64,000 nt of DNA. It comes from Candidatus Aminicenantes bacterium UBA2199. GTDB lineage: Bacteria; Acidobacteriota; Aminicenantia; UBA2199. The position numbers were made by a program. Of the stretch, positions 45,001 through 51,000 are shown piece after piece (within the stretch, counting starts at the first letter, position 1; every line of letters begins with the position of its first letter). Where the stretch lies: assembly GCA_002327965.1 (NCBI GenBank), contig DCVB01000002.1:27009-91008 (forward strand). Reading direction: 5' to 3'.

Positions 45001-48000
45001 AAGGATGGACCAGACGAACCCCTGGACGATCTTCAGCGCGGCGTGGCTCTCCCTGTACAGGACCAGCCCGGAGGCCGGGAAAACGAAGATCACCAGCAGG
45101 GCGGCGAACTGGCTGACGAAATCGACATCGAGAAGGACCAGGGCGACGGCCGCGGCCAGCGCTGCATTGAGTGCAATTATGACTTTCAATCTTCCATTCA
45201 TTGAATTGGGCTGAATAATGAAAACCTAGTTTGGTTAAAAAGCATGATAACAAATGGAGCCGGCAAAGTCAAATCGGCGCTCCCGGCACTGTCGCGGCGG
45301 CATCACTTGACATCCCGGGGGACATCTGATATATATTCCCCGCTTCACTAGAGGAGTTTTCATGAACACCTCCGCCCCTGCTCCACTGGTCGATGTCCTG
45401 CTCCCGGTATACAACGAAGAGCACATCCTGGAGAAAAGCGTCACCACGCTGCGCGACTTCATGGGCCGGAACCTCAGCGGTTACCGCTGGGTGATCACCA
45501 TCGGCGACAACGCCTCCACCGACCGTACCCTGGACGTCGCCCGCCAGCTCGCCGCCGCCTATCCCGATGTTCGTGCCTGGCATCTCGATCGCAAGGGGCG
45601 CGGCCGCATGGTCAAGTACGCCTGGACGCGCAGCGAGGCGCAGATCCTGTCTTACATGGACATCGATCTGTCCACCGGCCTGGAGGCGCTGCCGCCGCTG
45701 GTCCAGGCCATCGCCGACGGCTGCGCCGTCGCCATCGGTTCGCGGCAATACAAGGGCGCCGTCGTCGAACGCAGCCTCAAGCGTGAGGTCATCTCGCAGG
45801 GCTACATCCTGATCCTGAAGCTGCTGCTGCGCTTTCCCTTCACCGATGCCCAGTGCGGATTCAAGGCCATGTCCAAGCAGGCGGTGAACGAACTGTTCCA
45901 GCTGATCGTCGACGACGAGTGGTTTTTCGACACGGAGTTGCTGTACCTGGCCCACAAGCGGGGATACAAGGTCAAGGAACTGCCCGTGCGCTGGGTAGAA
46001 GACAAGGACTCGCGGGTAAGGATACTGCGCACCATGTGGCTGGACGTCAAGGGCGTCTTGCGCATGATGCGCTCCCGCCGCCTGTGGAGCAAATAGCGCC
46101 CTGCCGCCCCGGCCCCCGGTTCCCGGGGCCATCTTTCCGGTTGCTCAGAATTCCCTTTCCGCCACCCGGGCGGCATTGGCCATCAGGGTGAAGGTCAGGT
46201 TCTTGGCGGGCAGGAAGGGAAAGCAGGTCCCGTCGACGAAGTAGAGATTGTCGAAGTCGTGGCTGCGGCAGTTCGCCGTGGCTGTCAGCGATTTTTTCCC
46301 CCGGTTCATGGGGATGGTGCCGGCGTAGTGCACGCTGGCTCCCATCGGGCGCACGTGCAGCATGCCGGGCGGCACCGCCGCCCCCAGTTGCAGCAGGATT
46401 GCCTTCACCCGGGAGATCAGGCCCTGCAGCCGCTTTTTTTCACCCGGCGGCGGCGCGTAGCGAATGCGCAGTTCCGCGCGCAGCGGATCGGGGGCGCCGG
46501 CGATGGCCACCCGGTTCCCGGGTCGGCGGTCGTCATGGAAGTTGATGTTGGCCACGCCCAGGGCGGCATGCAGGTTGCGGCTGAGGAACAGCGAGGTTTT
46601 CAGGTCGAGCGGCACGCTCTCGATGATGGGGTGCAACAGCCCCGTCTTCAGCGTGGTGATCTGGCCGTGGACGAAATGCCTGGGATCGTCGGTCTCGATG
46701 CCCATGGCCAGCTGGTGATATTGGTAGGTCTCCGCCTTGAAGGGCTTGCCGGCCAGCTTCAGGTTGATGAAGGGGATCAGTACCTGGCGATTGTCCATCA
46801 GGCCCGACAATTCCATGCTTTGCCCCGTGCGCCGCTGGATGGAAGCGAGGAAGATCCTGGCCGTGCAGAGGGTGCCGGCGGCCAGCACCAGTTTCTTCAC
46901 CGGGAAATCCTGGGGCCGCCCCTTTTCCAGATCCCATGCCGTTACCGTCGCGACGCGGTCATCGGCGCCGTACGTGAAATGGCTGACCAGCATGCCGGGG
47001 ATGTAGGTGAAACGGGGGAAGCCGAGACAGGCCTTCAGGGTGAGGGAAGGGACGTACAGGGAATCGCTGGGACATCCCCAAAGGCAGCGGCCGCTGTAGT
47101 CGCAGGCTTGGCGACCGTCCATGTCCCGGCTCAGCACCGCCAGGCGCGAGCGCCCCATGAAGCAGGAATGCTTCTTCTGCAGCCGCTCCCGCTTTCTCTC
47201 GTAGGCGGCGTAAAGCAGGGCCGAATGCTCGTCGAATTCGAGCGGCGGCTGCAGGTTCGCGTGCCAGGGGTGGAAGCGCTCCAGGTCGTCGCGCGCGCCC
47301 AGCATGCCGATGCGCCCGGCCACCCGGCTGTAAAAGGGCTCCAGATCATCGTAGCCAAATGGAAAATCGGCGAGTTCCGCGTCGTTATAGGCATATGCCC
47401 CGCCGGTCCAGGCCTCGGCCAGGCCGCCGCGGGCGAAGGAAAACAGGGGCGCGAATCCCTCGGAGCGTTCGCGCAGCAACCCGGGCGCCCGGAACACGTA
47501 GTTCTTGCTGGGCGGGAAGCCGTAGTACTCTTTTCCGGCGTCGGGCAGGATCAAGGACTCGAATTTCTTTCCCAGGAAATAATCGACCGGGTCGACCAGG
47601 TTCTCCTTCAGCCCGTTCAGCGTATCCCGAGGATTGACGGCTTCCTCGGGGGGGTAGCCCACGTCCAGCATGGTGACGGCATAGCCCTTTTCCAGGACCG
47701 AGAGGGCGAAGTGGACGGCGCTGGCGCCGGAACCGACGACGGTGATGTCAGACATTTTCACTTTCCGGGGCGCGCCGGCCGCGGGTGATCCGCGACAGCA
47801 CCTGCAGCGGCAGCAGCACGATGACGGCGGGCACGAGCGCCAGCACCATGGTGAATCCCTTCCAGGCGACGGCGACGAACAGCCCGGGCAACGATCCCGG
47901 GCCGGCGGCGTCGATGCTCCGATAGTATGGCGGTGTCAATTCGAGGACGGCGAGCAGCAGCACCAGTTTTTTGCGCAAAAGGCCCTGTGGGCGAAAAAAG

Positions 48001-51000
48001 CGGGCGTAGGCATCGCAGGGCTTCACGGTCAGCGGATGGCGGGCCGCGATCGCGACCAGCAAGGGGTCGAAGAACCCCGGGCCCCGGTCCCACGCCAGAG
48101 CCGCATGCCCCTCGGCGTACTTCGCCTGCACGTAGGGGTTCATTTCCCGGCCGAGCAGGTAGCGTCCGAAGACGCGGCATTCGCGCTCCAGGCGGGGATC
48201 GCCGCCGCTCTCCACCGTCAGGGACAGGCTCTCGGCGATCATTTCATCAATCGTTCGGAACCCCCCGGCCAGCTTGTCGGTGAGGGGATTGGCGTCGGCC
48301 ACCCCGTCGTGGCGGAATGTATAGAGCTGGCTCGCGCTCAGCGGCAGCCGCTGTCCCAGGACCTTTTCTCCCGCGGCCAGTAGCGGGATCAGCGGCCGCA
48401 GGGGAAGGCGCACGACGCGCCGCCGCTCGGAGCCGGAGAGGCGGCGCATGCGCAGCAGGAAGTCCTCGATGCTCACGGCCTGCGGCCCGCCGATATCCAG
48501 CGTCTCGCCCTGGAAGCGGTCCTCGGCCAGGACGGCCAGCATCACCTGCACGAGGTCGTCGACATGGATCGGCTGGATGCGGGTTTTCCCGCCGCCGAAT
48601 ACGGGCATGAGAGGAAGGGCGGCCAGGCGCTGCAATCCCGCCATGACGGGCGAGCCGGGGCCGGCGATGATCGTCGGGCGCAGGATGGCATAGGGCAGGC
48701 CGGCGGCCCGCACCAGCGCTTCTCCTTCTTCCTTGGCGCGGCCGTAGGGGTAATGCTTTTTTTCGGGGAACTTCGCGGCGATCGAGCTGACATGCAGGAA
48801 GCGCCGGACCTCGGCGCGGGAACATTCGCCGAGCAGGACCCGGGTGCCGTCGACGTTTGCCGTGCGCTGCTGCGCCGGCCCGGCCCGGCCGGTGGCGGCG
48901 GCCAGGTGGACCACCGTGACGTTGCTGTTCAACAGGGATCGGTAGCTCTCCGGGTCATTGAGATCGCCGGCGACAGGTTGGGTGCCGGCCGGCGCCGGCA
49001 TTCGCTGCGCCGGGTTGCGGCTCAGCCAGTGGACATGTCGGAAGCGGCCGGGATCGAGGGCGGCGAGCAGGCAGCGGCCGACGAATCCCGAGCCGCCGGT
49101 GACGAACAGCGATTCCAAGACAACCTCCGGCAGCGGGCCTGTACGCTCGATGCAACGGAAGCAATTATAATGAACGCCGCCCGGGTTGTCAATCGCGGCG
49201 CGCCGTCACCGGTCTCCGATTCGTCGCCGTTCATGTCCTGTGCTATAATGGTGCGCATGCGCAAGCGAAAACGTCTTGTCCTGGTCCTGCCCCCGCTCCT
49301 GATCCTGATCGCGGCCGGCTATTTCTGGCTGCGTCCGCGTCCCCATGCCGCCCCTTTTCTGCGCCTGGATGTCGCTTCTTCCCTGCATGATAGAAGCGTG
49401 GTCTCCATCCATTCCCGGAGCGGCGAGATACGCTGGCGCGGTGAACGGAGGCCACAGCGGAGCCGCGTGGCGGGCATCGGCGGCGCCGGTTTCGCGCTGG
49501 CGGGGCGGAAGAGCTTCCCGTTCTCGTTCCCCTGGCGGGGAAACTGCGCGGTCTTCTGTTTCCATGATTTGCGGCCCGACGGCGAATCTCCCATAACCAT
49601 GGAGCTATGGCGCTTGCGACGCCAAAAAACCGAGCTCGTTGGCCGGGTGGAGAATCCCGAAGAGCAGGGATATTTCGTGCAAAAGGTCGATGTGAGCCGC
49701 GGTGACCGCTTCGAGCTGCGCTGGAACGGTGCCGGGCGCGTTTTCATAGGCCAGCCGCTGCTGTACCGCGTCCTGCCGGCGGCGGAGCGCCGGACCATCG
49801 TCATGCTGGCCGCCGACACGCTGCGCGCCGACCAGATCGACGCCCGTGTCAACGATGTCGCCGTGGCGCCGTTCCTTACCCGCTTCGCCGGGGAGTGCGC
49901 CCGTTTCGACCGCTGCCTCAGCCCCAGCACCTGGACCCTGCCCAGCTTCACCAGCCTCTTCACCGCCCGCAACGAGATCATTCATGGCATGAACGCTCCC
50001 GGCCTCCTCGATAAAGGCCAGCCCTTCCTGGTCGAGGCGCTGCGCGACCGCTTCATCACGGTCAATTTCAACGGCGGCCTCTGGTTGCAGTTTCAGTCGG
50101 GGTTCCACCGCGGCTTTGACATCGTGCGCGAAGGGGGATACTTCGGTGAGCACAAGACGGTGATGGCCGACTCGCTGCTGGCAGGGACCCTCGCCCTCCT
50201 GGAGCGGGCCGAGTTTCCCGTTGTTTTCCTTTTCCTGCACACCTACCAGGTGCACACTCCCTACCGGCCGCCCGCTGACCTGCTGCGCCGCCTCGACCCG
50301 GGACACCCGGCGCTGGCCGCCGGAGTTTTTCCGTCCACCCCGCCGACCGCCGAATCCAGTGCCGCCGAGCAGGAACATTATTTCCGGCTCTACCAGGCGG
50401 GCGTTTCGCTGCTCGATCGGGAGATCGAGAAGTTTTTTGCCGGCCTGAAGCGCGCCGGGCTGTACGAAGGGACGATGTTCATGCTGTTCGGCGACCATGG
50501 CGAGGCCTTTGGCGAGCATGGCGACTGGGAGCACGGAACATCGCTGTTCAACGAGCAGCTGCACGTGCCGCTGCTGCTGCGCTTTCCAGGCGGTCGCTTC
50601 GCCGGTTACCGGGCCGATTTTCCGGTATCGCTGCTCGACCTGTTCCCAACCCTGCTCGATTTTCTGGACATCCAGCCGCCGGCAACAAAGCTCGACGGCG
50701 TCAGCCTGATGCCGGCCCTGACGACGGGGTGGCAGCGGCCCGAGCCAGTCGTCTCCTCCCTGATGAACTGCTGGTACGACGAAAATGTGCCGCCGCAATT
50801 GGCGCTCAGCTTTGCCCGCTGGAAGATCATCGTCACTTTCGACGAGGCCTCCGGCGACCCTGGCCCGCCGCAGGCCTACGACCTGCAACTCGATCCGCGA
50901 GAGCGGACGCCCCTGGCCGACCTGCCGCCCGACGCCTGGCGCCAGGCGCTGCCCATCGTCCTCCTGCACCAGGATTATCTGAAGACGCAGCGACCGGCAA

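Follow-up and report, generated by a model that had tools for sequence, protein, structure and literature searches.

The 64,000-nucleotide stretch of DNA discussed here (referred to as the window) is part of contig DCVB01000002.1 from Candidatus Aminicenantes bacterium UBA2199. It carries a gene for a family-2 glycosyltransferase (GT2) next to an operon encoding a short-chain dehydrogenase/reductase (SDR), a small membrane-anchor domain, referred to as X, and a GMC-family flavoprotein (GMC1) with a predicted iron-sulfur (Fe-S) cluster. Together, these four components form a widespread cassette, the gene order of which recurs across phyla far beyond chance. The cassette probably acts on the lipid-linked product of the GT2, and the outcome could well be epimerization of a polyprenyl-phosphate hexose, although this last step is held more tentatively. 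A preliminary description of the window proposed a module similar to the DprE1/DprE2 pair. That proposal is partly supported, in that the GMC enzyme groups with sugar dehydrogenases and is co-conserved with the SDR and GT2, but no component is homologous to DprE1 or DprE2. The description also overlooked what the sequence comparison identifies as the key conserved unit, i.e., GMC1 with X as its obligate partner, as well as the Fe-S cluster motif. The features of the cassette are as follows.

45362 to 46096, plus strand: GT2S, 244 aa, a soluble family-2 glycosyltransferase without transmembrane (TM) helix, similar to dolichol-phosphate-mannose synthase (DPMS) and PpgS (PF00535 Glycos_transf_2, 3.7e-19)
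46145 to 47755, minus strand: GMC1, a divergent GMC flavoprotein, 536 aa, with a predicted 3Fe-4S cluster (alternative GTG start at 47761)
47748 to 48230, minus strand: X domain, formed by the last ~160 aa of the SDR open reading frame (ORF), all-helical, with a hydrophobic C-terminal membrane anchor
48231 to 49118, minus strand: SDR domain, ~296 aa, extended and NDUFA9-like, TTG start at 49118 (Epimerase PF01370, 2e-22, and PF13460)
49164 to 49192, minus strand: promoter-like site of the SDR-X/GMC1 operon, TTGACA-17 nt-TATAAT, 12/12 positions of the sigma-70 consensus, 46 bp upstream of the SDR start

The cassette and its four components

All genes named in the preliminary description were recovered in their frames, with small corrections, by Pfam matches and codon-position GC (GC3 0.83-0.89 for the named genes). 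The locus statistics given below refer to the best 80 of 283 GMC relatives in genomes, retrieved with a GMC profile; the denominators vary (76, 71, 64 and 46), 76 being the loci with enough sequence upstream of the GMC gene. These 80 loci represent at least eight phyla and include Aminicenantes, Acidobacteriota, Nitrospirota, Gemmatimonadota, Planctomycetota, Methylococcales, deltaproteobacteria and Calditrichota; the genome loci nearest to the cassette of the window are found in Aminicenantes metagenome-assembled genomes. Neighboring genes were surveyed using targeted tblastn and a screen for polytopic proteins, which replaced an all-versus-all clustering of ORFs that was swamped by antisense shadow ORFs and merged SDR paralogues.

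In 75 of 76 loci, X is encoded directly upstream of the GMC gene on the same strand and ends only a few bases from where the GMC gene starts. The SDR is found directly upstream of X in 63/71 loci and a GT2 adjoins the cassette in 57/64, i.e., GMC1 is tightly co-conserved with both, in agreement with the preliminary description, and less strictly with GT-C transferases (38/46, see below). The four genes may form part of a larger operon, as in locus L042 (Wzx-like, PgpA, polytopic m1, GtrB, SDR, X, GMC), or reside as a set amid unrelated genes, as in the Pyrinomonadaceae locus L084 (GT2, SDR, X, GMC). A cytochrome c subunit is not among the conserved neighbors, nor was a UbiA-type gene seen in the cassette.

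GMC1 belongs to the GMC superfamily, as judged from the presence of both the FAD-binding fold motif (GSGASA and D32, both invariant) and the C-terminal His/Asn pair (H477/N520, invariant in the family at the position of the GMC catalytic pair). The only Pfam match is to GMC_oxred_C (PF05199, 3.2e-8; 34.7 bits, with a curated cut-off of 24.6), and PF00732 is detectable in only some of the homologues. The family displays 55-60% identity across phyla over the whole 536-aa length. This length, which matches all homologues, makes the ATG at 47755 the more likely start than the GTG at 47761. The overlap between the GMC and SDR genes that was originally noted is therefore retained, but shortened to 8 bp between the GMC1 start and the SDR-X stop (ATGTCTGA).

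With a profile of 25 homologues, the closest solved relatives of GMC1 are the alpha chains of FAD-dependent glucose dehydrogenase (FAD-GDH; 6a2u/8hdd, 1.5e-20), i.e., the catalytic subunit of the Burkholderia enzyme, followed by the fructose dehydrogenase large subunit (4e-15) and bacterial pyranose oxidase (4e-13). Choline/alcohol oxidases are not among the closest matches of this profile in the PDB; GMC1 thus groups with 3Fe-4S sugar dehydrogenases and pyranose oxidases, in line with the preliminary reading. A motif, C219-x5-C225-x3-C229 (numbered from the GTG at 47761), is invariant in the 25 sequences and aligns residue for residue with Cys212, Cys218 and Cys222 of the Burkholderia cepacia enzyme (BcGDH), which are the 3Fe-4S ligands in the crystal structure (PMC6719666). 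On this basis, a 3Fe-4S cluster is predicted in GMC1. The residue at the position of BcGDH His105, which binds FAD covalently, is an Ala. No Tat or Sec signal was found on GMC1, which opens directly with the GSGASA motif, and an N-terminal signal sequence is absent from GMC1, the SDR and GT2S alike. A weak C-terminal match of GMC1 is 6'''-hydroxyparomomycin oxidase. A mycofactocin system, which combines a GT2 (MftF) with a GMC enzyme (MftG), was ruled out; the matches fall far below cut-off and the mftA-E genes are absent.

What was initially described as a C-terminal membrane domain of the SDR is indeed present in the 47748-49118 minus-strand ORF, but it represents a separate conserved family, X, found as a standalone gene (~150 aa) in about half of the loci and fused to the SDR in the remainder. 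An exhaustive HMMER scan of 1.84 billion representatives yielded 1071 clusters of X at 50% identity, most of them standalone, while ~15% of the best matches were ~450-aa SDR fusions. Neither sequence nor profile searches gave a match in Pfam (noise only) or the PDB. The AlphaFold2 (AF2) model of X (pLDDT 89.8) displays seven helices, the last of which (residues 114-152) is a 39-residue hydrophobic helix, and a Foldseek search of the PDB with this model revealed no structural neighbor, the "hitchhiker" subunit of FAD-GDH included. Homology of X to this gamma subunit was therefore ruled out, given a model of high confidence without a Foldseek match and the lack of a PDB profile match; X also has no twin-arginine N-terminus. 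By these searches, X is a new protein family without recognizable relatives.

Five residues of X do not vary in the alignment (E17, Y38, D73, R86 and E97), and conservation of C18 reaches at least 90%. The E17-C18 pair ("EC") opens helix 1, and the invariant E97 lies within the hydrophobic helix LLLAILE. The small subunit of FAD-GDH has a Cys beside the 3Fe-4S cluster; Cys18 of X could provide a fourth ligand to the cluster or belong to the interface. Because basic residues precede the LVLLLAILE helix and follow the last helix, the sequence suggests a helical hairpin with both ends on the cytoplasmic side. An unusual arrangement involving X is seen in locus L083 (9369-11617; CP070627.1, a 9.1-Mb Aminicenantes genome), where the GMC gene is preceded only by a 210-aa ORF composed of X and the last ~50 residues of an SDR. 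Neither a GT2 nor a full SDR was found within 10 kb, and this locus may be a decayed or rearranged copy of the cassette.

The SDR harbors the TGxxGxxG motif (as VTGGSGFVG) and an SS...YPYGRAK segment, i.e., the Ser-Tyr-Lys triad is intact; across 42 homologues, conservation is at least 90% in the columns of S166, Y180 and K184. Its closest PDB chains are 9g83_P and the 39-kDa/NDUFA9 subunits of complex I (2.7e-13 to 1e-10), whereas the match to the UDP-glucose 4-epimerase GalE reaches only ~5e-6; many of the homologues are labeled "NADH dehydrogenase" by JGI. NDUFA9 is a membrane-surface SDR with bound NADPH, located beside the quinone site and Fe-S clusters. Because of this affinity and the fusion to X, the sequence data favor a membrane-bound substrate site for the SDR over action on a nucleotide sugar in solution. 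The fusion of SDR and X, together with the 8-bp translational coupling of X and GMC, argue for a physical complex. Because the SDR is fused to the obligate membrane partner of the GMC protein, both enzymes would act at the membrane on one substrate, like DprE1 and DprE2. The promoter-like site upstream of the SDR is a consensus match only, and a 4.2-kb scan gave two such sites where 0.7 were expected.

As originally proposed, GT2S is Dpm1-like. Its top PDB match is the Pyrococcus furiosus dolichol-P-mannose synthase (5mlz, 7e-17), followed by ArnC, and the NCBIfam matches are all polyprenyl-P glycosyltransferases (Dol-P-hexose transferase, PgfS, AglJ, PpgS and ArnC). It is presumed from these matches to be a polyprenyl-phosphate hexose synthase. 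The GT2 proteins that adjoin the cassette are of two mutually exclusive types. Those of type 1 (36/64 loci) are GT2S-like, with 48-80% identity to the protein of the window. Type 2 (21 loci) is composed of 320-aa proteins with C-terminal TM helices, which match Synechocystis GtrB (5ekp, 2e-95), PgfS (8e-93) and ArnC (8e-48). By homology, both types would be polyprenyl-phosphate glycosyltransferases. The identity between GMC proteins is 55-56% within the GT2 classes compared to 53% between them, and the nearest-neighbor GMC has the same GT2 type in 57/63 cases, which may be mere taxonomy. In the window, the 48-bp gap between the convergent GT2 and GMC1 stops (46097-46144) holds an inverted repeat rich in GC (GGCCCC(C)GG TTC CCGGGGCC). 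The repeat lacks a T-tract, and a simple terminator scan gave no call for it.

GT-C transferases and surrounding genes

The GT-C transferases that the preliminary description placed around the cassette were also found, one by Pfam and another as a GT-C fold by Foldseek, and a third such gene is located further away in the window. The genes outside the cassette that are considered here, including those of a second GMC set, are the following.

29779 to 31296: third GT-C, with a PMT_2 domain
39569 to 40612, minus strand: extended SDR, 347 aa, PF01370, downstream of GMC2
40691 to 41743, minus strand: extended SDR, 350 aa, PF01370, downstream of GMC2
41754 to 43211, minus strand (frame scanned, 41754-43298): GMC2, 485 aa, canonical GMC protein (GMC_oxred_N PF00732, 4.3e-31; GMC_oxred_C PF05199, 6.3e-18)
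43208 to 43609, minus strand: 133-aa partner of GMC2, without Pfam match, GC3 0.84, overlapping the GMC2 start by 4 bp
43618 to 45201, minus strand: candidate GT-C-fold protein, polytopic, 527 aa, ten hydrophobic segments, first gene of a long minus-strand operon
49254 to 51071, plus strand: TM-anchored protein of the sulfatase/alkaline-phosphatase superfamily (PF00884, 9e-28), supported by GC3, divergent from the SDR-X/GMC1 operon
51084 to 52787, minus strand: PMT-family GT-C, 567 aa (PF02366 PMT, 6.6e-8; PF13231 PMT_2, 8.6e-8)

For the 43618-45201 protein there is no Pfam match, only a weak NCBIfam match to ArnT (0.0028), and its family profile matched nothing among PDB sequences. The AF2 model (pLDDT 80.9, pTM 0.88) gave Foldseek matches in the PDB of which the top 15 are all GT-C proteins (STT3, ALG12, DPY19, PglB, AftA, ALG6 and PimE among them), with E-values between 5e-3 and 0.3; the probability is 0.96-1.0 for the first 14 of these matches and drops to 0.54 for the last. 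From this Foldseek comparison, the protein is referred to as a candidate GT-C-fold glycosyltransferase. An identical protein is encoded on several public metagenome contigs in the same gene order. Homologues of the PMT protein at 51084-52787 are found in 24/80 loci.

Among the loci with at least 5 kb on both sides (n = 46), GT-C or GT-C-like polytopic proteins are found within a radius of 10 kb in 38, with a Pfam match to PMT, PMT_2 or YfhO in 26/46; a Wzx-like Polysacc_synt protein is seen in 14/46. A further polytopic family, m1 (~510-530 aa), is found in 25 loci, always at most 2.6 kb from the cassette and often abutting it (carriers: L009, L015, L026, L033, L037-L042, L044, L045, L047, L049, L050, L059, L064, L066, L069-L071, L073, L074, L076, L078, L079; for example L042:5794-7377). 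It has an invariant first-loop motif, D59/H65/D67, and no Pfam, NCBIfam or PDB sequence match; a profile-profile comparison with the 43618-45201 family is marginal (probability 52%). From these sequence features, m1 is a candidate for a new GT-C-like transferase.

Relatives of the sulfatase-family protein at 49254-51071 are found in 18-20 of the 80 loci, also in other phyla, and the glycan or lipid carrier of the cassette might also be the target of this protein, as a phospho-transferase or hydrolase. The minus-strand ORF at 49605-50969 was ruled out as a gene by codon-position GC, i.e., it is a shadow ORF of the plus-strand sulfatase gene.

The second set, composed of GMC2, its 133-aa partner and two extended SDRs, was initially considered similar to the cassette. 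It is indeed a recurrent module, but GMC2 is canonical, its partner is unrelated to X (the relationship was ruled out at an hhalign probability of 0.15%) and its relatives elsewhere show no linked GT2. The closest PDB match of GMC2 is cholesterol oxidase (1coy, 1.3e-14), followed by choline oxidase, cellobiose dehydrogenase and others. The two SDRs match PF01370 at 5e-31 and 5e-38, and their best NCBIfam matches (HpnA, OleD, SdmB-like) are all below cut-off. In metagenomes, the immediate upstream neighbor of a GMC2 relative encodes a homologue of the 133-aa protein in 8 loci, and SDRs (one or two) adjoin such a relative in five (L090, L091, L093, L095 and L099), i.e., partner, GMC2 and SDRs constitute a real conserved module in its own right. 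A tblastn search with the GT2 of the window found nothing in the metagenome loci of the GMC2 relatives. In the two loci examined in detail, L090 and L091, the neighbors include YfhO, LPG_synthase_TM, a thiamine pyrophosphate enzyme, a desaturase and one DprE1-like VAO flavoprotein. The latter (L090:9612-11150, minus strand; FAD_binding_4 and an ALO C-terminus) is a single case, located 2 kb from the GMC2-type module and near a YfhO GT-C. The second set is a weak parallel that resembles the cassette in architecture only and offers no independent support for action on a lipid-linked sugar.

GMC2 and its neighbors are part of the long minus-strand operon (34249-45201), which comprises the GT-C-fold gene, the 133-aa protein, GMC2, the two SDRs, a polytopic 588-aa protein without Pfam match, a GDSL/SGNH protein, a NodU/CmcH-type carbamoyltransferase and an SxtJ-like protein with three TM helices. 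Such a gene content points to an envelope glycan with extensive tailoring (O-carbamoylation or acylation). A promoter-like site, TTGACT-17-TATCAT with a TG, is found at 45272-45244. The segment 15656-34098 is also envelope-related and encodes a PMT_2 GT-C, two methyltransferases, a type I phosphodiesterase, two PKD-domain proteins and a 1091-aa HlyD-like protein; a polytopic 576-aa protein without Pfam match is found at 15656-17386, an asparagine synthase-like amidotransferase at 18294-20213 and another extended SDR at 20159-21163. Positions 2001-6000 have a GC content of 51-52% compared to 61-69% elsewhere in the window. The sole tRNA of the window, a tRNA-Ser with anticodon UGA (3081-3169), resides beside this low-GC stretch, which may be an element integrated at the tRNA gene.

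Proposed mechanism and alternative explanations

In the proposed mechanism, the cassette would most likely work on the cytoplasmic side of the inner membrane, where the GT2 would attach a hexose, donated by a nucleotide sugar, to polyprenyl phosphate. The GMC flavoprotein, held at the membrane by X (fused to the SDR in the window), would then convert one ring hydroxyl of the lipid-bound hexose into a keto group, at C2, C3 or C4 because C1 is blocked by the phosphate. FAD would hand the electrons to the 3Fe-4S cluster, from which they would reach an acceptor in the membrane, for example quinone. Approaching from the opposite face, the NDUFA9-like SDR would use NAD(P)H to reduce this ketone and yield the epimeric polyprenyl-P-sugar, which after flipping would be used by the neighboring GT-C transferases to decorate an envelope glycan. 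The sequences show the domain families, the cofactor motifs, the lack of signal peptides, the translational coupling and the gene order across phyla, whereas substrate, oxidized position, electron acceptor and net epimerization are all inferred.

A number of observations weigh against this mechanism. In 8/71 loci (~11%) no SDR is adjacent, and L083 contains X and GMC only; because of these loci, the GMC/X pair may have a function that is independent of the reductase. NDUFA9-type SDRs can be non-catalytic. The GT-C linkage is loose, as it extends over 10 kb, involves several families and is expressed in raw counts. Recognizable relatives are lacking for both m1 and X, and no flippase of the GtrA, SMR or Wzx type was recognized among the proteins of the window. 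The 80-locus sample is composed almost entirely of metagenome-assembled genomes, the ORFs of which were called by a crude in-house method.

The loci without an adjacent SDR, where the order is GT2-X-GMC or X-GMC-m1, are also what favors oxidative tailoring, i.e., that GMC and X yield a keto-, aldehydo- or uronic-acid sugar as donor or precursor while the SDR is otherwise employed (in oxidative decarboxylation as in UXS/ArnA, in reduction to a deoxy or other product, or structurally). GMC enzymes such as 6'''-hydroxyparomomycin oxidase oxidize primary alcohols, and not all NDUFA9-type SDRs are catalytic. This explanation is nevertheless unlikely, considering that the SDR is present in 89% of the loci with a Ser-Tyr-Lys triad that is at least 90% conserved, that the conserved part of the cassette includes neither an aminotransferase nor a decarboxylase signature nor any other tailoring enzyme, and that an oxidase and a reductase on one anchor are the pattern expected for epimerization. 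The SDR could also act ahead of the GT2, as a nucleotide-sugar epimerase, dehydratase or decarboxylase (as PgfE, GalE or ArnA), with the GMC protein being independent. Weak Pfam and NCBIfam matches of the SDR to GalE, RmlD and dTDP-glucose dehydratase point in this direction, as do the Pgf and Arn systems, which pair a GT2 with such an SDR and a GT-C, and the PgfS match of the GtrB-type GT2. However, the NDUFA9-type relatives are closer (2.7e-13 to 1e-10, compared to ~5e-6 for GalE), the SDR domain measures only ~296 aa, many homologues share its fusion to X, and its position between GT2 and X-GMC is fixed, which together render this explanation improbable.

The remaining alternatives concern the substrate. 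Matches of the SDR to HpnA, OleD, SdmB and 3beta-HSD, the resemblance of GMC2 in the window to cholesterol oxidase, and a fatty-acid desaturase and a PgpA gene near some relatives could indicate that the substrate is a different glycolipid of the membrane or a lipid alcohol, for example a glycosyl-diacylglycerol, a quinol-linked compound, or a hopanoid or polyprenol derivative. We consider such a substrate quite improbable in view of both GT2 types being closest to enzymes with a polyprenyl-phosphate acceptor (GtrB, 2e-95), of the GMC1 relatives oxidizing free sugars or glycosides, and of the enrichment nearby, by raw counts, of GT-C enzymes, which use polyprenyl-P-sugar donors. The least probable explanation, to which very little weight is given, is a catabolic or respiratory glycoside dehydrogenase (of the FAD-GDH or glucoside-3-dehydrogenase type) that resides by chance in glycan loci. 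The sequence kinship and the Fe-S motif shared with FAD-GDH and fructose dehydrogenase, and a gene order of small and then catalytic subunit that recalls gamma-alpha, speak for it. Yet GMC1 and X carry no Tat or Sec signal, a cytochrome c subunit is missing, X is unrelated to the hitchhiker subunit and a specific GT2 is adjacent in 89% of the loci.

If action of the cassette on the lipid-linked sugar is retained as the preferred explanation, it is possible, but rather more tentative than the choice of substrate, that the cassette represents an unrecognized, widespread pathway that alters the stereochemistry or oxidation state of polyprenyl-P-hexoses. It would be a convergent counterpart of DprE1/DprE2, with X as anchor and a cytoplasmic 3Fe-4S GMC protein feeding the quinone pool, and would be the source of unusual sugars for the GT-C enzymes of several phyla, among them Acidobacteriota, Aminicenantes, Nitrospirota, Gemmatimonadota and Planctomycetota. 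Few systems are known to remodel a sugar after its attachment to the lipid, i.e., DprE1/DprE2, the SDR ORF13, the deacetylases ArnD and NaxD, and the proposed VpsJ. Such remodeling creates unusual sugars that define envelope glycans and drug targets. With ~1000 families at 50% identity, in many poorly studied phyla, the cassette would add a new enzymatic solution to this problem, give a first role to a cytoplasmic Fe-S GMC dehydrogenase and a function to the unannotated X, and help to predict novel glycan chemistry in uncultured bacteria. As stated in the preliminary description, a GMC-based modification of lipid-linked sugars does not seem to have been described; none was found by full-text searches of the literature, with subscription journals largely outside their reach.

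Comparison with known systems

The closest solved relatives of the SDR domain are NDUFA9 and the 39-kDa subunit of complex I. Unlike NDUFA9, an accessory subunit with no known turnover, the SDR of the cassette has a conserved triad and its partner is a GMC flavoprotein. The mycobacterial polyprenyl-P-GalNAc system, composed of PpgS (Rv3631), Rv3632 and Rv3779, likewise has a small, soluble GT2 of the DPMS type, devoid of TM helices, which works together with a GT-C and a small membrane protein. That system contains no oxidoreductases, however, and the match between GT2S and PpgS is weak (2.7e-6, below cut-off).

The nearest kin of GMC1 are the FAD-dependent sugar dehydrogenases with a 3Fe-4S cluster, i.e., the gamma-alpha-beta FAD-GDH of B. 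cepacia (6a2u) and the fructose dehydrogenase of Gluconobacter (7w2j), with which the Cx5Cx3C ligands align. As in FAD-GDH, a gene for a small helical partner is found immediately upstream of that for the catalytic subunit. Enzymes of the FAD-GDH type are periplasmic, exported by means of the Tat signal of the hitchhiker subunit, with covalently bound FAD (at His105) and a cytochrome c subunit as acceptor. In contrast, the cassette has neither signal peptide nor cytochrome, an Ala is found at the His105 position, and X is an unrelated fold with a C-terminal anchor.

In its overall organization the cassette resembles the three-component glycosylation systems (GtrA/GtrB/Gtr* and CsbB/GtcA/YfhO), with which it has in common a GT2 polyprenyl-P-sugar synthase (an orthologue of GtrB in 21 loci), GT-C proteins (PMT, PMT_2, YfhO) and sometimes a Wzx-like flippase in the operon. 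Unlike in the Gtr systems, a GtrA-type flippase was not recognized in the window. The three-component system for undecaprenyl-phosphate (Und-P)-linked pentofuranose has an SDR epimerase, ORF13 (PMC11127046), i.e., an auxiliary enzyme alters the lipid-linked sugar before transfer, as is proposed here. In three-component systems this auxiliary step is absent or is performed by a single GalE-like SDR or by DprE1/DprE2, whereas in the cassette it would be performed by an Fe-S GMC protein, X and an SDR. From the gene content, the cassette fits the GT2/flippase/GT-C framework, with a new auxiliary module added.

DprE1 and DprE2 are physically associated and constitute the decaprenyl-phosphoribose 2'-epimerase of Mycobacterium, a tuberculosis drug target. 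Homologues are also found in systems for Gram-negative glycans that contain arabinofuranose (Araf), and the lipid-linked sugar epimerases reported are only DprE1/DprE2 or a single SDR; for side-chain glycosylation of the O-antigen (OPS), the authors of that study state that they are aware of no further epimerases (PMC11127046). As with DprE1/DprE2, a flavoenzyme oxidase and an NAD(P)H-dependent SDR are proposed to act in sequence on a polyprenyl-P sugar, the product of which would be used by GT-C enzymes. The components themselves differ. DprE1 belongs to the VAO/PCMH family (FAD_binding_4 and an ALO-like C-terminus), whereas GMC1 matches only GMC_oxred_C and structures of the GMC family. DprE2 is a classical SDR of ~250 aa and the SDR of the cassette is extended, NDUFA9-like and ~296 aa in length, such that only the SDR superfamily is common to both. 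The lipid-linked substrate of DprE1/DprE2 is provided by a UbiA-type phosphoribosyltransferase, dependent on phosphoribosyl pyrophosphate, and a phosphatase, whereas the GT2 of the cassette would use a nucleotide sugar; the cassette also has a dedicated anchor, X, and its sugar is probably a hexose. The cassette would thus work like DprE1/DprE2, yet by sequence comparison it is non-homologous in every component.

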